This document shows, piece by piece, positions 3,875 through 42,150 of a stretch of DNA of 64,000 nt (its first letter is position 1; each line of letters starts with the position of its first letter). The notes under the pieces were generated by a model, which did not search any database, was not told the DNA's origin, and saw only the letters and a list, made by a program, of their open reading frames with translations. Source of the stretch: Octopus vulgaris. Its lineage: Eukaryota. Position numbers and translations under genes: made by a program. The DNA lies in the NCBI GenBank assembly GCA_951406725.2, contig OX597824.1, positions 69,936,001 through 70,000,000 of the forward strand. The letters run 5' to 3'.

Positions 3875-4393
3875 ATGTGTGTGTGTGTGTGTGTCTTTCT
3901 CTCTGTCTCTCTATTTGTCCATGTCTGTCTGTTTGTCTTTCTCTCTATGTCTTTCTCTTTGTCGGTCTGTCTCTCTCTCATTCTCTCTCTCTCTTTCTCT
4001 CTCTCTCTTTGTCTCTCTCTGTCTTGCTCTCTCTCTCTGCTTTTCTCTCTGAGTCTCTCTCTTCTGTCTTTGTCTCTGTCTCTGCCTCCCTGTCTCTCTG
4101 CCCGTCTGTCTCTCTCTCTCTCGGTCTCTCTGTTTCTCTGTCTCTCTGTCTGTCTGTCTCTCTGTGTCTCTCTCTCTTTCTCTCTGTGTCTCTTTCTTTC
4201 TCTCTCTTTGTTTCTCTCTCTCTCTCTTGCTCTCTCTCTCAGCTTTTCTCTCTGATTCTCTCTCTTCTGTCTTTCTCTCTGTCTCTGCCTCTCTGTCTCT
4301 CTGTTCGTCTGTCAGCCTCTCTCTGTCTCTGTCTCTGTCTATCTCTCTGTGTCTCTGTCTCTCGGCCTCTCTGTTTCTCTGTCTCTCTGTCTG

Positions 4394-22308: not shown

Positions 22309-23078
22309 TTTTACAGAAAACAGCCATTAACAACGACTGTCTGTTGCATCTTGAGTCTTTTTTCTGTCCTTTAACTCCCACATGTACAACTTCCATGAAA
22401 CCACACCCGTTTAATATCTAACTTCTCATAACATTCAATAACATGTTCTCTCTCTCTCTCTCCCTCTCTCCTCCAATAAACACCATAATACCCTAAATAC
22501 CAATAACCGCATGAATAACCTTCAGTTTCCTTCAAGTGGCATTTTTACAAAGAAATATAAAATAGTTTATAATAAAAATAGTTTTCCTCGTAGGAATTCT
22601 GCTTCACAACAGAACAGTAACATCTGGAAAATCGGAGCCTTTGTGTGGTTGCTAACACTGCTAGAAATAGCAGAGTAGTGAGGATCATCATTCTGAAATC
22701 ACATGATAGCGTATTTTCAAAGAAAAGGTGAAGTTAAGTAGGAGAATATGCTCCAAAATCAACCGAAAAGATCTAACACGGAATGATCATGATTGCAAAG
22801 TCTTTGATCATTGATCTGTTAAATCAATGCTGATCTGAGTCCAACAGCAAAAACGCCTACTACAACAATAACAACAGCAAATTTTGGAAAACCTGGAGAA
22901 AACCACGAATCGGTTTGGTGACAAATATTTGGAACTGTATACTGAATATATGTAGCCCTATGGACATATATATATATATAACGGGAAGCTTTATGAAAAT
23001 AAACAAAAGACGAAGGCAGGTGGAAAACAAACGAACAATTGTATTAGTATGGCGCTCAGGAAATATAAATAAAACAAG

Positions 23079-23116
23079 TCTTTAACGTTTCGAGCCTACG
23101 CTCTTCAACAGAAAGA
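23079..23116 (-). ncRNA. Minimal type I hammerhead ribozyme (PLE 3' repeat), variant core CUGUUGA
   Basis: Minus strand reads TCTTT-CTGTTGA-A-GAGC-GTAG-GCTC-GAAA-CG-TT-AAAGA. Stem I is TCTTT/AAAGA, stem II is GAGC/GCTC, stem III is the palindrome ACGT, and the cleavage triplet is GUU. Confidence 0.8.
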
Positions 23117-23289
23117 TACACAGAGAGAGAAAAACACCGAAAGAAGGAGAGAAAAAAATGCGTGCAGTAGCTAACGAATCAACATGGCGATCTGATTTCG
23201 GCCAGAGGTCAAAGATCAAACATGAGACGCGAGAGCGAAATAAGGGGAGATAATAGGGTTGAGGGACCAGCTAAAAGTGCGTGGGAGGG

Positions 23290-23587
23290 GTCTGGATGTG
23301 TATGTATAGGGTTGGTGTATGTATTAGTATGTATAAGGGTGTGTGTGTGTGTGTGTATGAGAGAGTATCAGTGTGTGGGATTGGTCTGGACGTGCGTATG
23401 TATGGGGTTGGTGTATGTATTAGTATGTATTAGTATGTATTAGTACGTATTGGTATGTATAGGTGTGTGTGTGTGTGTGTGAGAGAGTATAAGTGCGTAT
23501 GCGGGGTCTGGACGTGTGTATGTATAGGGTTGGTGTAAGTATTAGTATGTACTAGTATGTATTAGTACGTATTAGTATGTATTAGTT
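23290..23587. repeat. Three imperfect ~95-122-nt tandem units in the PLE 3' UTR with nested GTATTAGTAT 10-mers
   Basis: Each unit starts gtctgga(c/t)gtg...gggttggtgta. Repeated in the pseudo-LTR at ~27782-28080. Confidence 0.8.
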
Positions 23588-23634
23588 GGTGAGTGTATTA
23601 GTATGGCACATCATATGTGATGTGATGTGTAAAG

Positions 23635-26600
23635 TCATGTGGTGTAGTGAGGAGAAGAGGGGGAGGGGAGAAGAGGGGGGAGAAGGGGAGGGGAAGAAGA
23701 GGGGGAGGGGAGGGTGAAGAGGAGAGGATGGGGAGAAGGAAGGGGAGGAGAGGGATGAAGGAGGAAAGAGGGAGAGGGGGAGAGAGAAGGGGAGAGAGGG
23801 AGTGAGGGAGCAGAGGGAAGAGGAAGAGGGAGGGAGAAAGAGGGAAGAAGGGAAGGGGAGTAGGGGTGAAAGGATGAAGGACTGAAGAAGTGGGGGTCGG
23901 GGGGAGAAAGGATAGGTGAGGAGGGGGAGAGGGGGGTTAGATGAGGAGGGGGAGAGTTGAGACCAAATGGCGTATAAGAGCGAAGAGAGAAGATTAATTC
24001 CTGTTCACGGCGCAAACGGGAATCCGGATGGCCTCTGTGTAAGGACAAACCGAACACAGATAGGTGTTGCAAGGAGTGACCGGTGGAGCGGAAATGGCGT
24101 GAGACCGGTGTGTCGTTCGCAAGGTGGATGTCACGAAGGTGTTCCGCGAACCGGTCAGCCAAGCGGCGTCCCGTTTGTCCGATGTACAAGGAATTGCAGA
24201 GAGAGCAAGAGATGCAATAGATAATATTGCTGGAGGTGCAGGTGAAGGAGTGGATGATGGGATAGGGTCGATGGTGGGTGCTAGTGAGGCGGGTGGTGTT
24301 GGAGAGGTAAGGGCAAGTGCGGCAACGTGGGCGGGAGCAGGTGAACGAGCCGGGTTGGGAGGTAGGGTCAGGGAAGGAGCTATGGACCAAAAGGTCTCGA
24401 AGGTTGTGGGCTCGTTTGAAAGAGGGGAGGGGTCGGTTAGGGAAGAGGTGTGAAGTGGACGGGTCGGACTGGAGACGACGGAAAGCTCGAAGAATGGTGC
24501 GTTGGAGACGTAGGGTCGTGGGGTGGTAAGTGAGGGGAAAAGGGAGGCGGGAGACTACAGGGCGGGTTCGGGGAGAGAGAGCAGATACACGGTCCACGGA
24601 CCGTGCTCTGGCAAGGGCGGTGTGGATAGTGGTGAGGGGGTATCCACGTAGGGTGAAGTGGTGAGCCATACGTTGAGACTGAGTCTCAAAGTCATGGTCG
24701 TCACTACAGAGCCTACGTAGACGGAGGAATTGGGAATAGGGGATGGAAAGCTTGGTGTGTTCTGGGTGGGAGGAAGAGAAGTTGAGGTATGAGTGTGAGT
24801 CTGTGTGTTTGTAGTGAATGGAGGTGGTAAGAGTGGAGTCAAGAATGCTAACCGAAATGTCGAGGAAGGAGACAGAGGTGTTGGAGATAGTGGAAGTGAA
24901 GTGGAGGGCTGGATGGAAAGATTGGACGAAAGAGAGGAAGGAATCTAGATGTTCGCGGGAGAGTGAGGTGGCACCGATAATGTCGTCAATATAACGACCA
25001 TATAGTTCAGGAGTGGGACCAGTGAAAGTAGAGAATATTTGGGCCTCAACATAGCCAACGAACAGGTTCGCATAGTTGGGGCCCATTCGCGTTCCCATGG
25101 CCACTCCCGAGACCTGATGGTAGAACTCGCCCGCGAACGAGAAGCAGTTCAGAGTAAGGACAAGTTCGGCCAGACGAATGAGTGTGGAGGTGTCAGGTAC
25201 AGGGTTAGAGCGGAGGTCAAGAAAGTGTCGAAGGGCCTGCAGTCCTTCGTGGTGAGGGATAACAGTATAGAGGCTTTGGATGTCCATAGTAAAAAGGATT
25301 TTGGAGGAGCCGGGAGGAAAGGAGAAAGAGTTGAAAAGCCGGAGAGCATGGTTGGTATCGTGGATGTGGGAGGGAAGAGATGCCACTAGGGGGGCAAGGA
25401 CACGGTCGAGGTATTTAGAGATGAGCTCCGTGGGGCAGTTACAGGCGGAGACGATGGGGCGGCCAGGGTTGTTGGGTTTGTGGATTTTGGGGAGGAAGTA
25501 AATGGTGGGGGTACGTGGGGTTCGCACAATTAGGTTGGATGCGGTGCGGGGGAGACGGGAGGACGAGATGAGGTCTTGGACCGTAGAGGATACCGTCTGT
25601 TGGTAGCTACGTGTGGGGTTAGAGGGCAGAGGGGAATAGAAGGAGGTGTCATTGAGTTGGCGGAAAGCCTCGGCCCTATAGAGGTCCGCGCGCCACACCA
25701 CTACAGCTCCACCCTTGTCAGCCGGTTTGATGATAATGTCAGCGCGCCGTTGGAGGGAACGAAGAGCCAAGAGCTCAGCCGGGGAGATGTTGAGGCGGCG
25801 TTGGCGCCTGGAGAAGTTGAACCGCTCCAATGCACGCTGACAAGCGCCCGCGAAAAGATCCACTGCTAGGATCTGGCCAGGGGCAGGCGTCCACGGGGAT
25901 GGTCGGCGGCCCAGGCCAGTGAAGCAGTCGTCCTCTTCGTTGGGTGTGGGTGGCGAGTCGTGGTAATGCGCACCCAACCGGACACGGCGCACAAAGCTGT
26001 GGACATCAACTCGCGTCTGGAATTCCTTACAGGATGGAGTGAGGGGGATGAAACGCAGACCCCTACCAAGGACGGAGCGTTCAGCCGCAGAGAGGGGAAG
26101 ATCGGGGGGAATGGTAACAACAGACGGAAGTGAAGAAGGGGTGGGTGGAATAGAAGTAGGAGGGGTGGTAGGTCTCGTGGAGGTCTGAGGGGGAGGGATT
26201 GGGGAGGTGTGTGGGGGGTGGTTGGGCGGGGCAGTAGGGTTAGGTGTAGGTGGATGGAGCCTAACGGGAGGGGAGAAGGGGTTGTAGGGAGGGGCAGTGG
26301 GGTTAGGTGTGGGTGGATGGAGCCTATCGGGAGGGGAGAAGGGTGGTGGAGGAGTTGGGGTAGTGGCGTCGGGTAGGGTGGAATGGAAGAGTGATTGGAG
26401 TTTACGAAGTTTGGTATCAGAAAGAAATTGATGGAAGAGTTGATTCAAATGGATAATGAAGCGTAGCGTGTTTGGAGCATAGAGAGGCGGCAGAGAGGAG
26501 AAGAAGGTGGAGAAAGCAGGAGGAAGAAGGCGGTTGATGGCTTGTAGTTTGGAGAGATTGGAGCGAATGGTGGCCCGCATAAGGCGGTAAGATGTGGTGC

Positions 26601-26844
26601 GGAGTATGGGTAAGATGGAAGAATCCGAGTGGAGAGCAGGGTGGAAGTGGAGGCGGAAACCTTTAGGGATGAGTCGGTGATGTAGGCAGCGGCTTAGGAA
26701 AGAAACATGGCTAGAGAAGCGGGTTTTTTTAAAAAGAAGTAGAGAGAGATTAACGGACGGCTGAAGGCGATATACAGGAAGCGAACGTAGATGATCCTTC
26801 AAACGGTGATTGAGGGTGAGGAGGTAGGACCTAGGATCCGGCAT
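23635..26844 (-). CDS. PLE polyprotein: N-terminal domain, reverse transcriptase, Cys-rich linker, GIY-YIG endonuclease (~1069 aa from first ATG)
   Basis: Uninterrupted ORF; first in-frame ATG at 26844 (MPDPRSY). Motifs: FLSRCLHHRLIPKGF, KPADKGGAVVV, YFLPKIHKPNNPGRPIVS, TMDIQSLYT, GVAMGTRMGPNYANLF, RYIDD, CSRPRCRTC, NIIYCISCSLCNSLYIGQT..RFAEH, PFGLN. Confidence 0.93.
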   Translation of the reverse strand: MPDPRSYLLTLNHRLKDHLRSLPVYRLQPSVNLSLLLFKKTRFSSHVSFLSRCLHHRLIPKGFRLHFHPALHSDSSILPILRTTSYRLMRATIRSNLSKLQAINRLLPPAFSTFFSSLPPLYAPNTLRFIIHLNQLFHQFLSDTKLRKLQSLFHSTLPDATTPTPPPPFSPPDRLHPPTPNPTAPPYNPFSPPVRLHPPTPNPTAPPNHPPHTSPIPPPQTSTRPTTPPTSIPPTPSSLPSVVTIPPDLPLSAAERSVLGRGLRFIPLTPSCKEFQTRVDVHSFVRRVRLGAHYHDSPPTPNEEDDCFTGLGRRPSPWTPAPGQILAVDLFAGACQRALERFNFSRRQRRLNISPAELLALRSLQRRADIIIKPADKGGAVVVWRADLYRAEAFRQLNDTSFYSPLPSNPTRSYQQTVSSTVQDLISSSRLPRTASNLIVRTPRTPTIYFLPKIHKPNNPGRPIVSACNCPTELISKYLDRVLAPLVASLPSHIHDTNHALRLFNSFSFPPGSSKILFTMDIQSLYTVIPHHEGLQALRHFLDLRSNPVPDTSTLIRLAELVLTLNCFSFAGEFYHQVSGVAMGTRMGPNYANLFVGYVEAQIFSTFTGPTPELYGRYIDDIIGATSLSREHLDSFLSFVQSFHPALHFTSTISNTSVSFLDISVSILDSTLTTSIHYKHTDSHSYLNFSSSHPEHTKLSIPYSQFLRLRRLCSDDHDFETQSQRMAHHFTLRGYPLTTIHTALARARSVDRVSALSPRTRPVVSRLPFPLTYHPTTLRLQRTILRAFRRLQSDPSTSHLFPNRPLPSFKRAHNLRDLLVHSSFPDPTSQPGSFTCSRPRCRTCPYLSNTTRLTSTHHRPYPIIHSFTCTSSNIIYCISCSLCNSLYIGQTGRRLADRFAEHLRDIHLANDTPVSRHFRSTGHSLQHLSVFGLSLHRGHPDSRLRREQELIFSLRSYTPFGLNSPPPHLTPLSPSSPILSPPDPHFFSPSSFHPYSPSLLPSFSLPLPLPSAPSLPLSPSLSPSPSFLLHPSPPLPSPHPLLFTLPSPSSSPPLLPPLLPSPSSPHYTT

Positions 26845-27471
26845 GATGGGATAGCGGAAAAAAAACGTTCGAAAAAACAAAAAAAACAAAAAACAAAAAT
26901 TATCGTATGAAAAAAATAGAAAAAAAGGGGAAAAAACAAACGTTCAAAAAAGCAAAAAAAATAATAAAAAAATAAAAAAATAATAATCGTATGAAAAAAC
27001 TAGATAAGTAAGCGATAGGGGCAGAAAAGACGGGGCAAACGGAAAAGGGAAAGAAAGAAGGGAAGCAGAGAGAGGGGGAGGCAAAAAAAGGGGGGTGCAG
27101 GCAGAGGAAACGGAGTATGGACATCCAGAGAGGGAAGAAAGACGGAAAGGAGAACAAAAATTCAGGAAAATGTGGAAAGCATGAAATGAATGTAAAAAAA
27201 GTGGTAATATAAGAGAAAATAAAAATACAACAAACGGGACAGTTTATGCGAACAAGTTCAAGGTTGAAAGTTCAAGGTGAGAAATGTGTAGACGTCGTGG
27301 TATATTTTTTAAGGATTTCACATCAATGCAAAGTCACTTTGATCCGCGAAAGAGAGGTGCAGCCGATGGTAAGTATCCAAGAGGTAAAGAAAATCCAAGG
27401 TAGAGGTAAGTGTTGATAGTGGTATTGGTAGAATATAGGATGAAAGTGAGACCACGTGAGCGCATAATATA

Positions 27472-28823
27472 TAACGGGAAGCTTTATGAAAATAAACAAA
27501 AGACGAAGGCAGGTGGAAAACAAACGAACAATTGTATTAGTATGGCGCTCAGGAAATATAAATAAAACAAGTCTTTAACGTTTCGAGCCTACGCTCTTCA
27601 ACAGAAAGATACACAGAGAGAGAAAAACACAGAAAGAAGGAGAGAAAAAAATGCGTGCAGTAGCTAACGAATCAACATGGCGATCTGATTTCGGCCAGAG
27701 GTCAAAGATCAAACATGAGACGCGAGAGCGAAATAAGGGGAGATAATAGGGTTGAGGGACCAGCTAAAAGTGCGTGGGAGGGTCTGGATGTGTATGTATA
27801 GGGTTGGTGTATGTATTAGTATGTATAAGGGTGTGTGTGTGTGTGTGTATGAGAGAGTATCAGTGTGTGGGATTGGTCTGGACGTGCGTATGTATGGGGT
27901 TGGTGTATGTATTAGTATGTATTAGTATGTATTAGTACGTATTGGTATGTATAGGTGTGTGTGTGTGTGTGTGAGAGAGTATAAGTGCGTATGCGGGGTC
28001 TGGACGTGTGTATGTATAGGGTTGGTGTAAGTATTAGTATGTACTAGTATGTATTAGTACGTATTAGTATGTATTAGTTGGTGAGTGTATTAGTATGGCA
28101 CATCATATGTGATGTGATGTGTAAAGTCATGTGGTGTAGTGAGGAGAAGAGGGGGAGGGGAGAAGAGGGGGAGAAGGGGAGGGGAAGAAGAGGGGGAGGG
28201 GAGGGTGAAGAGGAGAGGATGGGGAGAAGGAAGGGGAGGAGAGGGATGAAGGAGGAAAGAGGGAGAGGGGGAGAGAGAAGGGGAGAGAGGGAGTGAGGGA
28301 GCAGAGGGAAGAGGAAGAGGGAGGGAGAAAGAGGGAAGAAGGGAAGGGGAGTAGGGGTGAAAGGATGAAGGACTGAAGAAGTGGGGGTCGGGGGGAGAAA
28401 GGATAGGTGAGGAGGGGGAGAGGGGGTTAGATGAGGAGGGGGGAGAGTTGAGACCAAATGGCGTATAAGAGCGAAGAGAGAAGATTAATTCCTGTTCACG
28501 GCGCAAACGGGAATCCGGATGGCCTCTGTGTAAGGACAAACCGAACACAGATAGGTGTTGCAAGGAGTGACCGGTGGAGCGGAAATGGCGTGAGACCGGT
28601 GTGTCGTTCGCAAGGTGGATGTCACGAAGGTGTTCCGCGAACCGGTCAGCCAAGCGGCGTCCCGTTTGTCCGATGTACAAGGAATTGCAGAGAGAGCAAG
28701 AGATGCAATAGATAATATTGCTGGAGGTGCAGGTGAAGGAGTGGATGATGGGATAGGGTCGATGGTGGGTGCTAGTGAGGCGGGTGGTGTTGGAGAGGTA
28801 AGGGCAAGTGCGGCAACGTGGGC

Positions 28824-28827
<4 letters not shown>
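27472..28827 (-). repeat. Upstream pseudo-LTR: 5'-truncated copy of the PLE 3' end (GIY-YIG coding part + 3' UTR)
   Basis: Matches 22979-24336 with offset 4493 shrinking to 4491. By eye the only differences are four G-run length changes and one substitution (caccgaa vs cacagaa). Confidence 0.95.
27572..27609 (-). ncRNA. Second copy of the minimal hammerhead ribozyme (pseudo-LTR)
   Basis: Identical to 23079-23116. Confidence 0.8.
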
Positions 28828-28860
<33 letters not shown>

Positions 28861-38706: not shown

Positions 38707-39175
38707 GGTATTTGTCGTTATTATAGTGGTTACGGTTTTGGTTGATGGAAGTGATAGCAATTGTAATGGTGGTGGTTAAGATGATTGTGGGGATAGTAGT
38801 AATGGTGGAGATGATGGTGGTGGGTGTGACGACGGTGGCGATGGTGATAATGGCGGAGATGCTGCTGATGATGATGATGATAGCCGTAATGATGTTGATG
38901 TTAATGAAGATGGTGATGACACTAGTATTAAGGTCACAAACAACATTAGTTGTGGTATTTATCATTAAACAAGAGTTACAAATGACAATTACAACAACAA
39001 CAACAACAACAACAGCAATAACAAAACAAAAACAAAAGCAATAATAATGACATCTAATAGTTTTGGGAGCTGCTCTGTCAGAAATGCTCTGTTTGTATCT
39101 ATGTGTGTGTATGTGCGTATGTGTGTAGACTATAGTTGCATCCATATAAATGCATCTGTCTATCTATCTATCTAC

Positions 39176-39208
<33 letters not shown>

Positions 39209-39271
39209 AGTCTGTCTGTCTGTCTATCTAACTATCTATCTATCTATCTATCTATCTATCTGTCTGTCTAT

Positions 39272-42150
39272 CTTAGAGGGTGAGCTAGTTAAGAAGCTAG
39301 AAGAGGCAATTAGAAGCGGCATCGCATCCGACGTTTTGGCGGCGAGGTTGGCCCTCGACCATCACTTCAACGCCAAACACGAAGGGTGTGCTGTCAGAGC
39401 TAAGATGCGTGCTCTAAGGAACGAAGGTGTTGGAGCCGCGAGAGAGGCTCGGGTGGCAGAGGCGCAACAGGGCACCAAAGCCACCATTCGGTCTCCGGTA
39501 GATGAACAGGGGCGCGAATTGATCGAGCCAAGTAAAATGTGTGAGGCCTTTCAACAGCATTTTGCCCGACTGTTCGAGACGAGTGGCGGGCAAGAACGTA
39601 GGGTGGACTTCAGTGCCTACCTACACAGCCTACCACGACTCTCAACAAGAGAGACAGGGTGCTGCGAAGGTGCCATCACGGCGGCGGAAGTGCAGAACGC
39701 GATGGCAGAATGCTCGAGGGACAAATCGCCGGGTTTGGATGGTCTACACTACGAGCTTTACAATTGTATGCCAGACTTGTTTGGAAACGTCTTGGTAGCG
39801 GTGTACTGCAACTGGCAGCAAAACGGGAGCATTCCTGGTTTTGTGAGCCGAGGAGCCGTAACACTGCTGAAGAAGGATCAAAACAAGGGAAATGTAATAG
39901 ATAACTTTAGGCCCATCACTCTGCTTAATGCAGACTTGAAAATTTTGGCCAAGGTGTTAGCCAAGAGGTTGGCGCTTGTCATCGAGAAACTGGTCGACAA
40001 CGCACAAAGGTGCGCCGTGCCGGGCCGGACCATCCATGACAACCTCCACCTGATGCGCTACATCATAGACAGGGTAGTTAACGAACCTGGCATTGATGGG
40101 GCGCTGATCAATTTGGATCAATCGAAAGCTTTCGATAGGGTATACCATCGATACTTAAAGGCAGTCCTCAAGCGGTTGGCTTCGGTCCCGTCTTCCGCGG
40201 CTGGATTGCCGCTTTGTACAGAGGCATCCGTTCGGTAATTCGAGTAAATTCGAGACCTTTCGACATCGCTTCTATACGTATTGACTCTCGAGCCACTATT
40301 GCGGAAGCTGGCAACTCTGAGGGGCATCCCGCGAGAACTGGGATGCGGGACGAGCGTGTCTGCATACGCGGACGACGTTACCGTCATAGTGTCTAGCCAC
40401 GAGCACATCGAGCAGGTCGGCGAGACACTAAAAAACTACGAAGCGGTGACAGGAGCAAAAATCAACCGGGAAAAGTCAGTGGGCTTGCGACTAGGCACCT
40501 GGAAAAGCAAGCCCATGCCGTCCACCAGCGCCTCCGTTGTGGGACGCTGGACCGACGGTCCGGTCGAGTTGCTCGGGGTCTGGTCGGTCCGGACCTCCAA
40601 ATGGAGAAGAACTGGAACGAAATAACGAGTAGGGTGGTCCCTCTCGCCCGGCAATGGGCCGAGAGGAAACTGTTCCTAAAAGGTCGGGCGGAGGTGGCGA
40701 ACACGTACTTCGCGTCCGTCATCTACTACCGCCTGACCGTCGTGCCTTGTTCCGACCCTACCATCACCAAACTAGAACGCATTCTCTTTTGCTTCTTGTG
40801 GAAAGGATGCGTCCCGATGGTCAGGCGATCCATTTGCTGTCAACACCCGTTAAAAGGAGGACTGGGCATGCCGTGGTTGATGGTGCGCAGACACGCGCTG
40901 AGACTGCGACATCTCAGGCTCTTCGTAGACGACGGTGAACAGGTGTGGTCGCCGTTTGTGAGGCACGCTTTCTCGCAGCTCGTCTCCATGACCGAACTGC
41001 AATCGTGGATCAAAAAGAGGCCGAGGAAGGGCGAATGGCACCGCGAGTGTCGCGTTGCTCTCAAGCAACTCTGCCGTCCTGGGTCAACCAAAGCATTCTA
41101 TAGGGGATTAGTGGAGGGGAGGTACGACGACGATCTTGGGGCGAACCTGGACGTCGACGAGGAATATCTGACCCGCCTGTTCGGGACGACTTTCGGGCCA
41201 GGGCCCATGGAAAACTTTCAGAGATCCCTGGCCTGGCAGTGCTACCGAGAAGCGCTACCCGTTCGGGATAAGCTCTACAGACACGGCTCGAGAAACACGG
41301 GGCCGACCTGCCCGAGATGCGGTCAGAGCGACGAAACCGTTCAGCACGCCTCGTGCAGTGTCCAACAATTTCCGACCTGTGGGCTTATGTCGAACAACTG
41401 CTGTCACGTGTGGGACGAGTCAGTTTATCAGCTGAGTCTATCGTCAATATTGTCACGCCTCCTTCCTTCAAACGGGAAGGAAGAGCTATTTTCATCATCC
41501 TTGTGGCTATAGCGAAAGAATGTATCTGGTGGACGCGTCTGAAAGGATTGGAGACAAACACTTTCCTCTCTGGTCAACCTCTCATCAACTTCTTCAAGTA
41601 CCGCTTGAAAAGGAAAGTGAGAGTAGAGAGGCAAGTTTTGTCTAGCGAACGCTTTAAAAAAAGATGGGTGAATGTAGCAAGGATGGCACGTATGAATGAC
41701 GAAACCACCTTGAGCATAATCCTATGAACCCACAAATTGAAAAGAGAGGGTTACCCACTTGCAAACAAATGTGGTAACATATAACAATATTGACCAAGGT
41801 TACCGTGGTCTTTTTCGTAGGCTTTTCTTCCCACAGATAGACCTTACTTGCTTTCCCCTTTACACCACACATCATGACACTGTGATACACGATCCCTATT
41901 GATCGTTTTTTTTGCCTCTTCCCCTTTTTTCTTCTTTTTCATTCTTCTTTTCTTTTGTTCCTTTTCCCTTTTTCTTTTTTTTCTTTTCCTTTTTTTTTCT
42001 TTTTTTCTTTTTTTTGTTCTTTTTTCCCTTTTACGATCCCTTTTGATCGAAAACCTACGCCACCTTTTTTTTTTCTCCCCCAAAAGAAAAGCTCTACCTT
42101 GTAACTTGTCCCAACTGTGTGCAAGCCTGTGTGGCCAATAAAGAAACTTA
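39272..42150 (+). mobile_element. 5'-truncated Tx1/L1-clade non-LTR retrotransposon (frameshifted RT + zinc finger, 3' UTR)
   Basis: KSPGLDGL, NFRPITLLNADLKILAKVLAKRL, AVPGRTIHDNL, LDQSKAFDRV, AYADDVTV, GAKINREKS, GGLGMP and CPRCGQSDETVQH are spread over several frames. AATAAA at ~42137. (TCTA)n on both sides. Confidence 0.92.

Follow-up and report, generated by a model that had tools for sequence, protein, structure and literature searches.

Active Neptune-type families of Penelope-like elements (PLEs) are already known (PMC12602865), partial tandems have been found competent for transposition (PMC3846280), and 31 recently active PLE families have been counted in Octopus vulgaris (PMC13282606). 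A model in which PLEs pass through a circular RNA was proposed in PMC4209133, internal initiation has been shown for a Poseidon element in PMC11167929, where the later steps are unvalidated, and the function of the hammerhead ribozyme is called unclear in PMC8557442. The formation of the pseudo-long terminal repeat (pseudo-LTR) of PLEs and the role of the hammerhead are open questions, and the family described here bears on both. The window analysed (64,000 nucleotides of O. vulgaris contig OX597824.1, positions 69,936,001 to 70,000,000 in assembly GCA_951406725.2) contains on its minus strand a Neptune-type element at 22974..28827. On balance we favour the reading that this is a young element with an intact open reading frame (ORF), inserted in (TA)n, whose two repeats were likely copied in a single insertion event from one stretch of RNA, probably a circle of 4,493 nt whose release by the paired hammerheads is predicted.

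The insertion, delimited by repeat comparison and by family copies, consists of one 4,493-nt unit plus an upstream repeat of 1,361 nt (1.3 units), and unit positions are given as q = 27467 – window position. All features are on the minus strand except the (TA)n targets, to which no strand is assigned. The upstream repeat, or pseudo-LTR (27467..28827), is 5′-truncated at 28827 and fused there to host (TA)n (28827..28858). The downstream repeat (22974..24336) holds the end of the endonuclease (EN), a Pro/Ser tail, the 3′ untranslated region (UTR), a hammerhead motif and the 3′ end, where a second (TA)n target (22966..22980) overlaps the terminal TATATA. Only 1 substitution (23138/27631) and 4 one-base indels in G runs separate the two repeats, as the sequence-only reading of this DNA had noticed by eye. 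The repeat/body junction (27460..27485) is invariant, equals the 3′ end at 22974 and is the presumed start point of the reverse transcriptase (RT). It is followed by a 5′ UTR of 622 nt (26845..27466) and an ORF of 1,069 aa (23635..26844, ATG at 26844, within a stop-to-stop frame of 23635-26943). No target-site duplication was discernible at the junctions of the window element, its left flank is single-copy in the genome assembly, and folding of the junction region was not of unusual stability (z +1.7).

The ORF product comprises, in order, a helical N-terminus, a Pro-rich spacer, the RT, a Cys linker, a GIY-YIG domain and a low-complexity tail in which the reading frame varies between copies. 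The RT includes ADKGG and the catalytic motif YIDD (aa 618-621, 24982..24993), the CX4CX2C linker is CSRPRCRTC (aa 836-844, 24313..24339), and the endonuclease (aa 874-963, 23956..24225), located by homologue alignment, carries IIYCISCSLC...YIG with two His, Glu and Asn, giving the CCHH motif and the conserved R, H, E and N. The open ORF and the three segments seen by the sequence-only reading are thereby located, with Pfam RVT_1 above its cut-off (E 1.4e-7) and GIY-YIG under it (E 0.006; 17.3 bits vs 22.6). An AlphaFold model of the protein has a mean predicted local distance difference test score of 77.7, and its top 9 Foldseek matches in the PDB are all TERTs (E 4e-11 to 7e-9); a PDB sequence search with the protein gave no match.

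A single ORF, a telomerase-related RT, GIY-YIG with CCHH, and a pseudo-LTR formed by a partial tandem with a hammerhead motif in the repeat are the features of EN-bearing PLEs. By the criteria of PMC8557442, the position of the EN C-terminal to the RT places the element outside Naiad and Chlamys, the CX2-5CxxC linker places it outside Penelope/Poseidon, and DKG together with CCHH places it outside Hydra. Insertion is biased to microsatellites, with the fixed 3′ end lying in (TA)n in 27 of 28 copies selected by their ORF and most 5′ junctions likewise. In a quick tree of 39 rows, which bore no clade labels, the RT groups with unnamed rows and then with Acropora, Oculina and sharks/rays. Since A. 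millepora has Neptune, Naiad and Hydra according to PMC8557442, in which Neptune is paraphyletic, this grouping favours Neptune indirectly. The Neptune type proposed by the sequence-only reading is thus supported by architecture, a placement by motifs to which Nematis is a possible alternative. There was no sign of horizontal transfer among the relatives found, the named ones (corals, sharks, rays, snails, echinoderms) being 48-60% identical in the RT and one unnamed fragment 81%.

The 2.80 Gb genome assembly contains 5,593 exact matches to a 23-mer from the 3′ end and 164 to the repeat/body junction. Junction loci were taken in list order from C1-C9 (74 loci, L091-L147 and L160-L176) and comprise 56 of full-length type, 15 mini-elements and 3 with 3′ tails; a full-unit array on C6 and a mini array on C8 were picked deliberately in addition. 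The upstream repeat is fused at the same point (q4493 to q1) in all of the 30 best copies, and the junction sequence is identical in 28/28 ORF-selected copies, single-base or (TA) variants aside. Upstream repeats are 38-2,116 nt long (median 808, n=85), 83 of the 85 reach beyond the hammerhead, and their 5′ ends mostly abut host (TA)n. Poly(A) was absent at the 156 ends inspected. A gap below 480 nt in the upstream-repeat lengths of the 30 best copies became smaller when more junction loci were sampled and was discounted.

The origin of the repeats is best read from their agreement within copies. At sites polymorphic in the family, the two repeats of a copy were discordant in 2 of 988 comparisons across 82 copies, where 208 would be expected if they were independent. 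In a set of 70 copies, 23 variants occur in a single copy only, but there in both repeats, changes found in one repeat are balanced (43 upstream vs 35 downstream), and no repeat-specific allele occurs in more than 2 copies. Two independent insertions are incompatible with this agreement, and read-through from a parent is unlikely; both repeats were likely copied from one RNA segment during one insertion. The pseudo-LTR described by the sequence-only reading is real, but the partial tandem appears to be the product of one copying event and not of two adjacent insertions. When differences between repeats were mapped by zone, all non-repetitive zones showed 0.9-1.7 per kb and no jump point was located.

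Where copies stop differs between the first and the second passage over the unit. For single passes, the sample was the 65 3′-end matches (60 loci, with L073 dropped as a duplicate and L033 counted once per insertion) that lie within the initial 28.6 Mb of C1. In this sample, 25 of the 40 copies reaching q4289 stop within q4265-4289 (23178-23202; twin 27671..27695 in the upstream repeat), a rate of 0.025 per nt vs 0.002 nearby, or about 10x. On the second pass, the same zone accounts for the 5′ end of only 1 upstream repeat among 81 (Fisher p 2e-14). Genome-wide, (TA)4 is joined exactly at q4276 in 351 copies and 1,880 continue through intact. At the ribozyme cut (q4374-4396) there is no excess of ends (4/53; 0.0033 vs 0.0022 per nt). 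Because the first-pass pile-up is missing on the second pass, two templates are indicated, a linear RNA from about q4274 and a seamless template of unit length. With its start placed about 100-115 nt upstream from the cut site of the ribozyme, the linear RNA would yield copies of ~220 nt, and a circle is probably the simplest seamless template, with repeated homologous jumps as its rival. The pile-up zone contains what we take to be an Inr-like (initiator-like) TCAGAT and a YY1-like CGCCATGTT.

A hammerhead-like motif, found by pattern, lies in each repeat (23079..23116 and 27572..27609) with the same sequence and 4,493 nt apart, the predicted cuts being 23084/23083 and 27577/27576; an Rfam scan gave no match at the gathering score. 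The layout is type I (UCUUU/AAAGA, GAGC/GCUC, an extra base between 9 and 10.1, and a palindromic AACGUU stem III) and is the same as that of the minimal type I hammerhead of PMC4209133. The cleavage-site triplet (NUH) is GUU, or GUA in older copies. With the core numbered as in PMC7151607, the predicted core is CUGUUGA, which differs from the canonical CUGANGA in U6 (A6U at 23108). The hammerheads noted by the sequence-only reading are hence present in both repeats, but with a non-canonical core. All 12 of the A6 loci that were fetched are older relatives of 73-87% identity, so U6 looks derived. Variants borne by the template, that is present in both repeats, fall in the hammerhead in 1 case of 33, a permitted U>A at H17, vs 14 cases among the 72 changes that postdate insertion (Fisher p 0.03). 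The hammerhead is thus likely constrained in templates that give copies of more than one unit, cutting being only one candidate cause.

Internal deletion has produced a series of short derivatives. The 16 mini-element loci, of 470-580 nt, join q208-303 to q4205-4331 with 15 different pairs of breakpoints, and all keep the ribozyme, the junction and at least the first 208 nt of the 5′ UTR. The first 208-303 nt of the 5′ UTR (27164-27466) retained in 16/16 is likely a cis element for reverse transcription, and may parallel the requirement, in PMC11167929, for RNA downstream of the point where RT begins. L150 (C8:18601400-18603700) is a tandem array of 492-nt hammerhead units that are 99.0-99.7% identical to the window element, and L150, L115, L103, L119, L144 and L166 are short non-coding tandems with a type I hammerhead per unit, as in retrozymes. 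The mini-elements are internal deletions of an identified autonomous element, judging from their sequences, and would be its parasites. Two further insertions, head-to-head and two-armed, share a second and rare 3′ end at q145 (27322), which gives a 145-nt tail. A degenerate copy of the 3′-end motif (CATAAA..CCCGTT) was observed at 27229-27250, unit position ~217-238, beside the left breakpoints of the mini-elements.

In the mechanism proposed, the likely start of transcription is near 27686, within the upstream repeat, as the piled-up 5′ ends suggest, and the endonuclease likely nicks (TA)n, which is the observed target, by analogy with PMC11167929 and PMC8557442. RT would then start at a fixed internal site, the repeat/body junction, which the observed fixed 3′ end suggests. 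On the linear RNA, synthesis would reach the end of the template after ~220 nt and give the common short copies, whereas on the seamless unit-length template RT would re-pass its start and stop at random, giving copies of 1.01-1.5 units and, rarely, full arrays. Each random stop on the second pass would supply a new promoter-bearing pseudo-LTR every generation. Deletions that keep the ribozyme, the start site and the first ~210-300 nt of the 5′ UTR would give rise to retrozyme-like parasites of 470-580 nt. The 4.5-kb RNA running from hammerhead to hammerhead that the sequence-only reading anticipated agrees with the long copies, but the abundance of ~220-nt copies suggests that there is also a linear RNA. 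In its fullest form, which we put forward tentatively and at somewhat less than even confidence, the proposal is that an autonomous PLE undergoes rolling-circle reverse transcription of a 4.5-kb circle made by A6U hammerheads, perhaps gated by protein or Mn2+. Its promoter repeat would be remade at each insertion, a competing linear transcript would give ~220-nt dead ends, and RT jumps from the RNA 5′ end would repeatedly spawn retrozymes.

Several points weigh against a hammerhead-released circle. U6 is found in 5,119 copies vs A6 in 13, and changes of A6 reduce hammerhead activity (PMC3088659, PMC7151607; A6U is not mentioned in the available text of either), with A6C cutting >10,000-fold slower in 0.3 mM Mg2+ than in Mn2+ (PMC7151607). 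The constraint on the hammerhead is a modest signal (p 0.02-0.03) that could reflect a protein-binding or structural role. Cleavage in PMC11167929 was protein-assisted, in vitro insertion was unaffected by ribozyme mutations, and none of the reads had its end at the cut site. The single-pass sample mixes older and younger subfamilies, with 6 of the 25 stops in young copies, comes from the start of one chromosome, and relies on local BLAST alignments for its 5′ ends; the ~220-nt copies could, instead of arising by run-off, belong to a non-autonomous family that propagates itself. The cut, the circle and the transcript are predictions from DNA copies, and a template jump and a circle give an identical DNA product.

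The last point leaves room for a linear template, on which RT would proceed from the upstream junction to the RNA 5′ end and jump to the 3′ repeat in a retroviral-like manner, once or repeatedly, with the hammerhead dispensable or structural. We consider this unlikely, but not negligible. It accounts for the identity of the repeats and for the 5′-end pile-up, and 7 of the 16 right breakpoints of mini-elements fall at unit positions 4283-4288, inside the pile-up zone, as would be expected if RT leaves the template there. It is also consistent with the A6U core and with a ribozyme that is unnecessary in vitro (PMC11167929). However, stops at the RNA 5′ end should on this model be equally frequent on both passes, in conflict with the second-pass count given above, and template-borne variants avoid the hammerhead. 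A seamless, probably circular template remains the preferred reading.

The Octopus Neptune-type family has been active very recently. ORF-core distances from the window copy are 0.1-1.8% for most copies. The window copy is a member of the youngest subfamily (L001-L007, L112, L174), with 4 private substitutions in the ORF and 1 in the 3′ repeat. At the rate implied by PMC13282606 (Jukes-Cantor distance 0.09 = 25 million years, My), the single repeat difference gives an age of ~0.1 My (95% 0.003-0.57) and the 5 private changes give ~0.24 My (0.08-0.55); RT or sequencing errors among these changes would make the estimates still younger. The very recent and intact insertion of the sequence-only reading is supported in both respects. 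An ORF open through the endonuclease is found in 20 of the 86 full-length copies examined (19 with the duplicate L009/L010 taken once), and 18 of these 20 rank among the 30 best BLAST hits. The synonymous share is higher among shared than among private ORF variants (43:49 vs 153:289, p 0.03).

That the window locus could be a source element, as suggested from the sequence alone, is possible, but nothing singles it out. It has an intact ORF, both ribozymes and a place in the youngest subfamily, and yet we regard it as highly improbable that it is the main current source of the family. Its 5 private alleles are absent from all other fetched loci, which represent part of the family, and no daughter copy is thus known from this sample; the subfamily tree places it on a terminal branch with L002 and L003 at the node, and 19 other copies among the 86 have intact ORFs.

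Two separate insertions, or read-through of a master locus with a long repeat or multiple units, are highly improbable as the origin of the partial tandem and are largely refuted by the pairing of repeats described above, since separate insertions would pair them at random and read-through would transmit upstream/downstream differences. An array of 3.3 units at C6:117390700-117405400 (L148, L149) speaks for such a master, and PMC11167929 proposes multi-copy transcripts and nicking within the pseudo-LTR of the element itself. The C6 units are 0-3 substitutions apart over 3.6 kb, none of the three has an intact ORF, and the array, which is of a different subfamily from the window copy, is the only full-unit array among 100 junction matches listed. 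It fits the same copying process running longer. An assembly artefact as the source of the duplication or of the open frame is hardly credible, for although many homopolymer indels separate the copies and some may be sequencing errors, the junction recurs 164 times, a contig of an independent public run (X20) bridges 27097-27512 and the left flank is single-copy.

Other observations concern variation in the family. The ORF markers of the youngest subfamily (26811, 26769, 26542, 25028, 24840, 24476 and 23892) are non-synonymous in 7/7 cases, which has p ~0.1 under neutrality and is a hint only. A T5A7 run at 26726-26737 (codons 38-41) is altered in 35 of 81 scored copies, which are scattered across the tree and of which 20 have T5A6, and the three units of the C6 array have three different T5A7 states. 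These changes are either RT slippage or assembly error; no T5A7 indels are listed in contigs of four public runs. The L009/L010 and L072/L073 pairs share the same insertion and flanks within each pair and are likely duplicated segments or haplotigs.

In the 5′ UTR, the stretch 26990-27060 of the element strand contains a pyrimidine tract, CTTAC and TAG, which presumably resemble a 3′ splice site with a branch-point-like CTTAC, and several GTAAG donor-like words occur on the opposite strand at 27365-27415. Over most of 26400-27790, the contigs of the four runs show no intron-like joint, and they have the majority-family alleles at 26542, 26704, 26769 and 26811. These runs are only presumed to be RNA and their contigs, compared at this one stretch, are uninformative on expression or its level. 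Between 88 and 92% of sampled words from an ORF stretch are present in 20 runs (13 studies, 7 organism labels), which may reflect close species, labelling or recent transfer. Elsewhere in the window, where the sequence-only reading had considered every other coding element decayed, 15 other ORFs were scanned and the sole retroelement matches belong to a broken long interspersed nuclear element at 39150-41512, with RT and zf-RVT in two separate frames.

The single locus is ordinary, given the 31 recently active families of PMC13282606. What the family offers is evidence, at the level of individual copies, for a common template of both repeats, and exact coordinates for the start site, the RT start points and the cut site. 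Multi-round copying of one RNA, probably circular, has been proposed earlier for such elements but not shown, and these data make the question of circle versus jump testable. The family also supplies a direct parent for retrozyme-like repeats, whose origin was argued from similarity in bioRxiv 10.64898/2026.07.22.740005. No description of the octopus family, of an A6U PLE hammerhead or of a copy-level test of pseudo-LTR formation was found in the literature, though Arkhipova 2006, Schostak 2008 and the supplements of PMC8557442, PMC4209133 and PMC13282606 may list the family or the core variant.

Among known systems, TERT (PDB 6zdq, 3du5, 7trd) resembles the predicted protein model in structure, as expected for a PLE RT, but identity is 9-14% and the octopus protein is that of an EN-bearing mobile element. 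The Neptune elements of PMC8557442 are alike in the single ORF, the RT followed by a C-terminal GIY-YIG, the CX2-5CxxC linker, CCHH and DKG, as well as in the partial-tandem pseudo-LTR, the hammerhead in the repeat, the microsatellite target and the occasional inverted 5′ copy. The octopus family differs in its fixed A6U ribozyme core, in the Pro-rich spacer and 100-aa Pro/Ser tail of the ORF, which are missing from 21 homologues, and in its 3′ tail, which is rare and 145 nt long where that of Neptune is 30-40 nt (PMC8557442). The Poseidon element PAc of Anolis (PMC11167929) shares an AT-rich target, an internal RT start needing downstream RNA, two start sites and a minimal hammerhead. However, PAc is from the clade without a Cys linker (PMC8557442), has a ribozyme that overlaps the start codon and initiates RT at sites within the ORF, whereas the start sites predicted for the octopus element are 622 and 477 nt upstream of the ATG; the available text on PAc (PMC11167929) demonstrates neither a template jump nor a circle. 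Metazoan non-LTR retrozymes (PMC7229834; bioRxiv 10.64898/2026.07.22.740005), for which RNA circles were demonstrated in PMC7229834, likewise consist of non-coding units, in tandem or partial tandem, that each carry a single type I hammerhead. Their link to PLEs rests, in those papers, on co-occurrence and pseudo-LTR similarity, whereas the octopus derivatives are internal deletions up to 99.7% identical to the parent element, with 15 separate breakpoint pairs.

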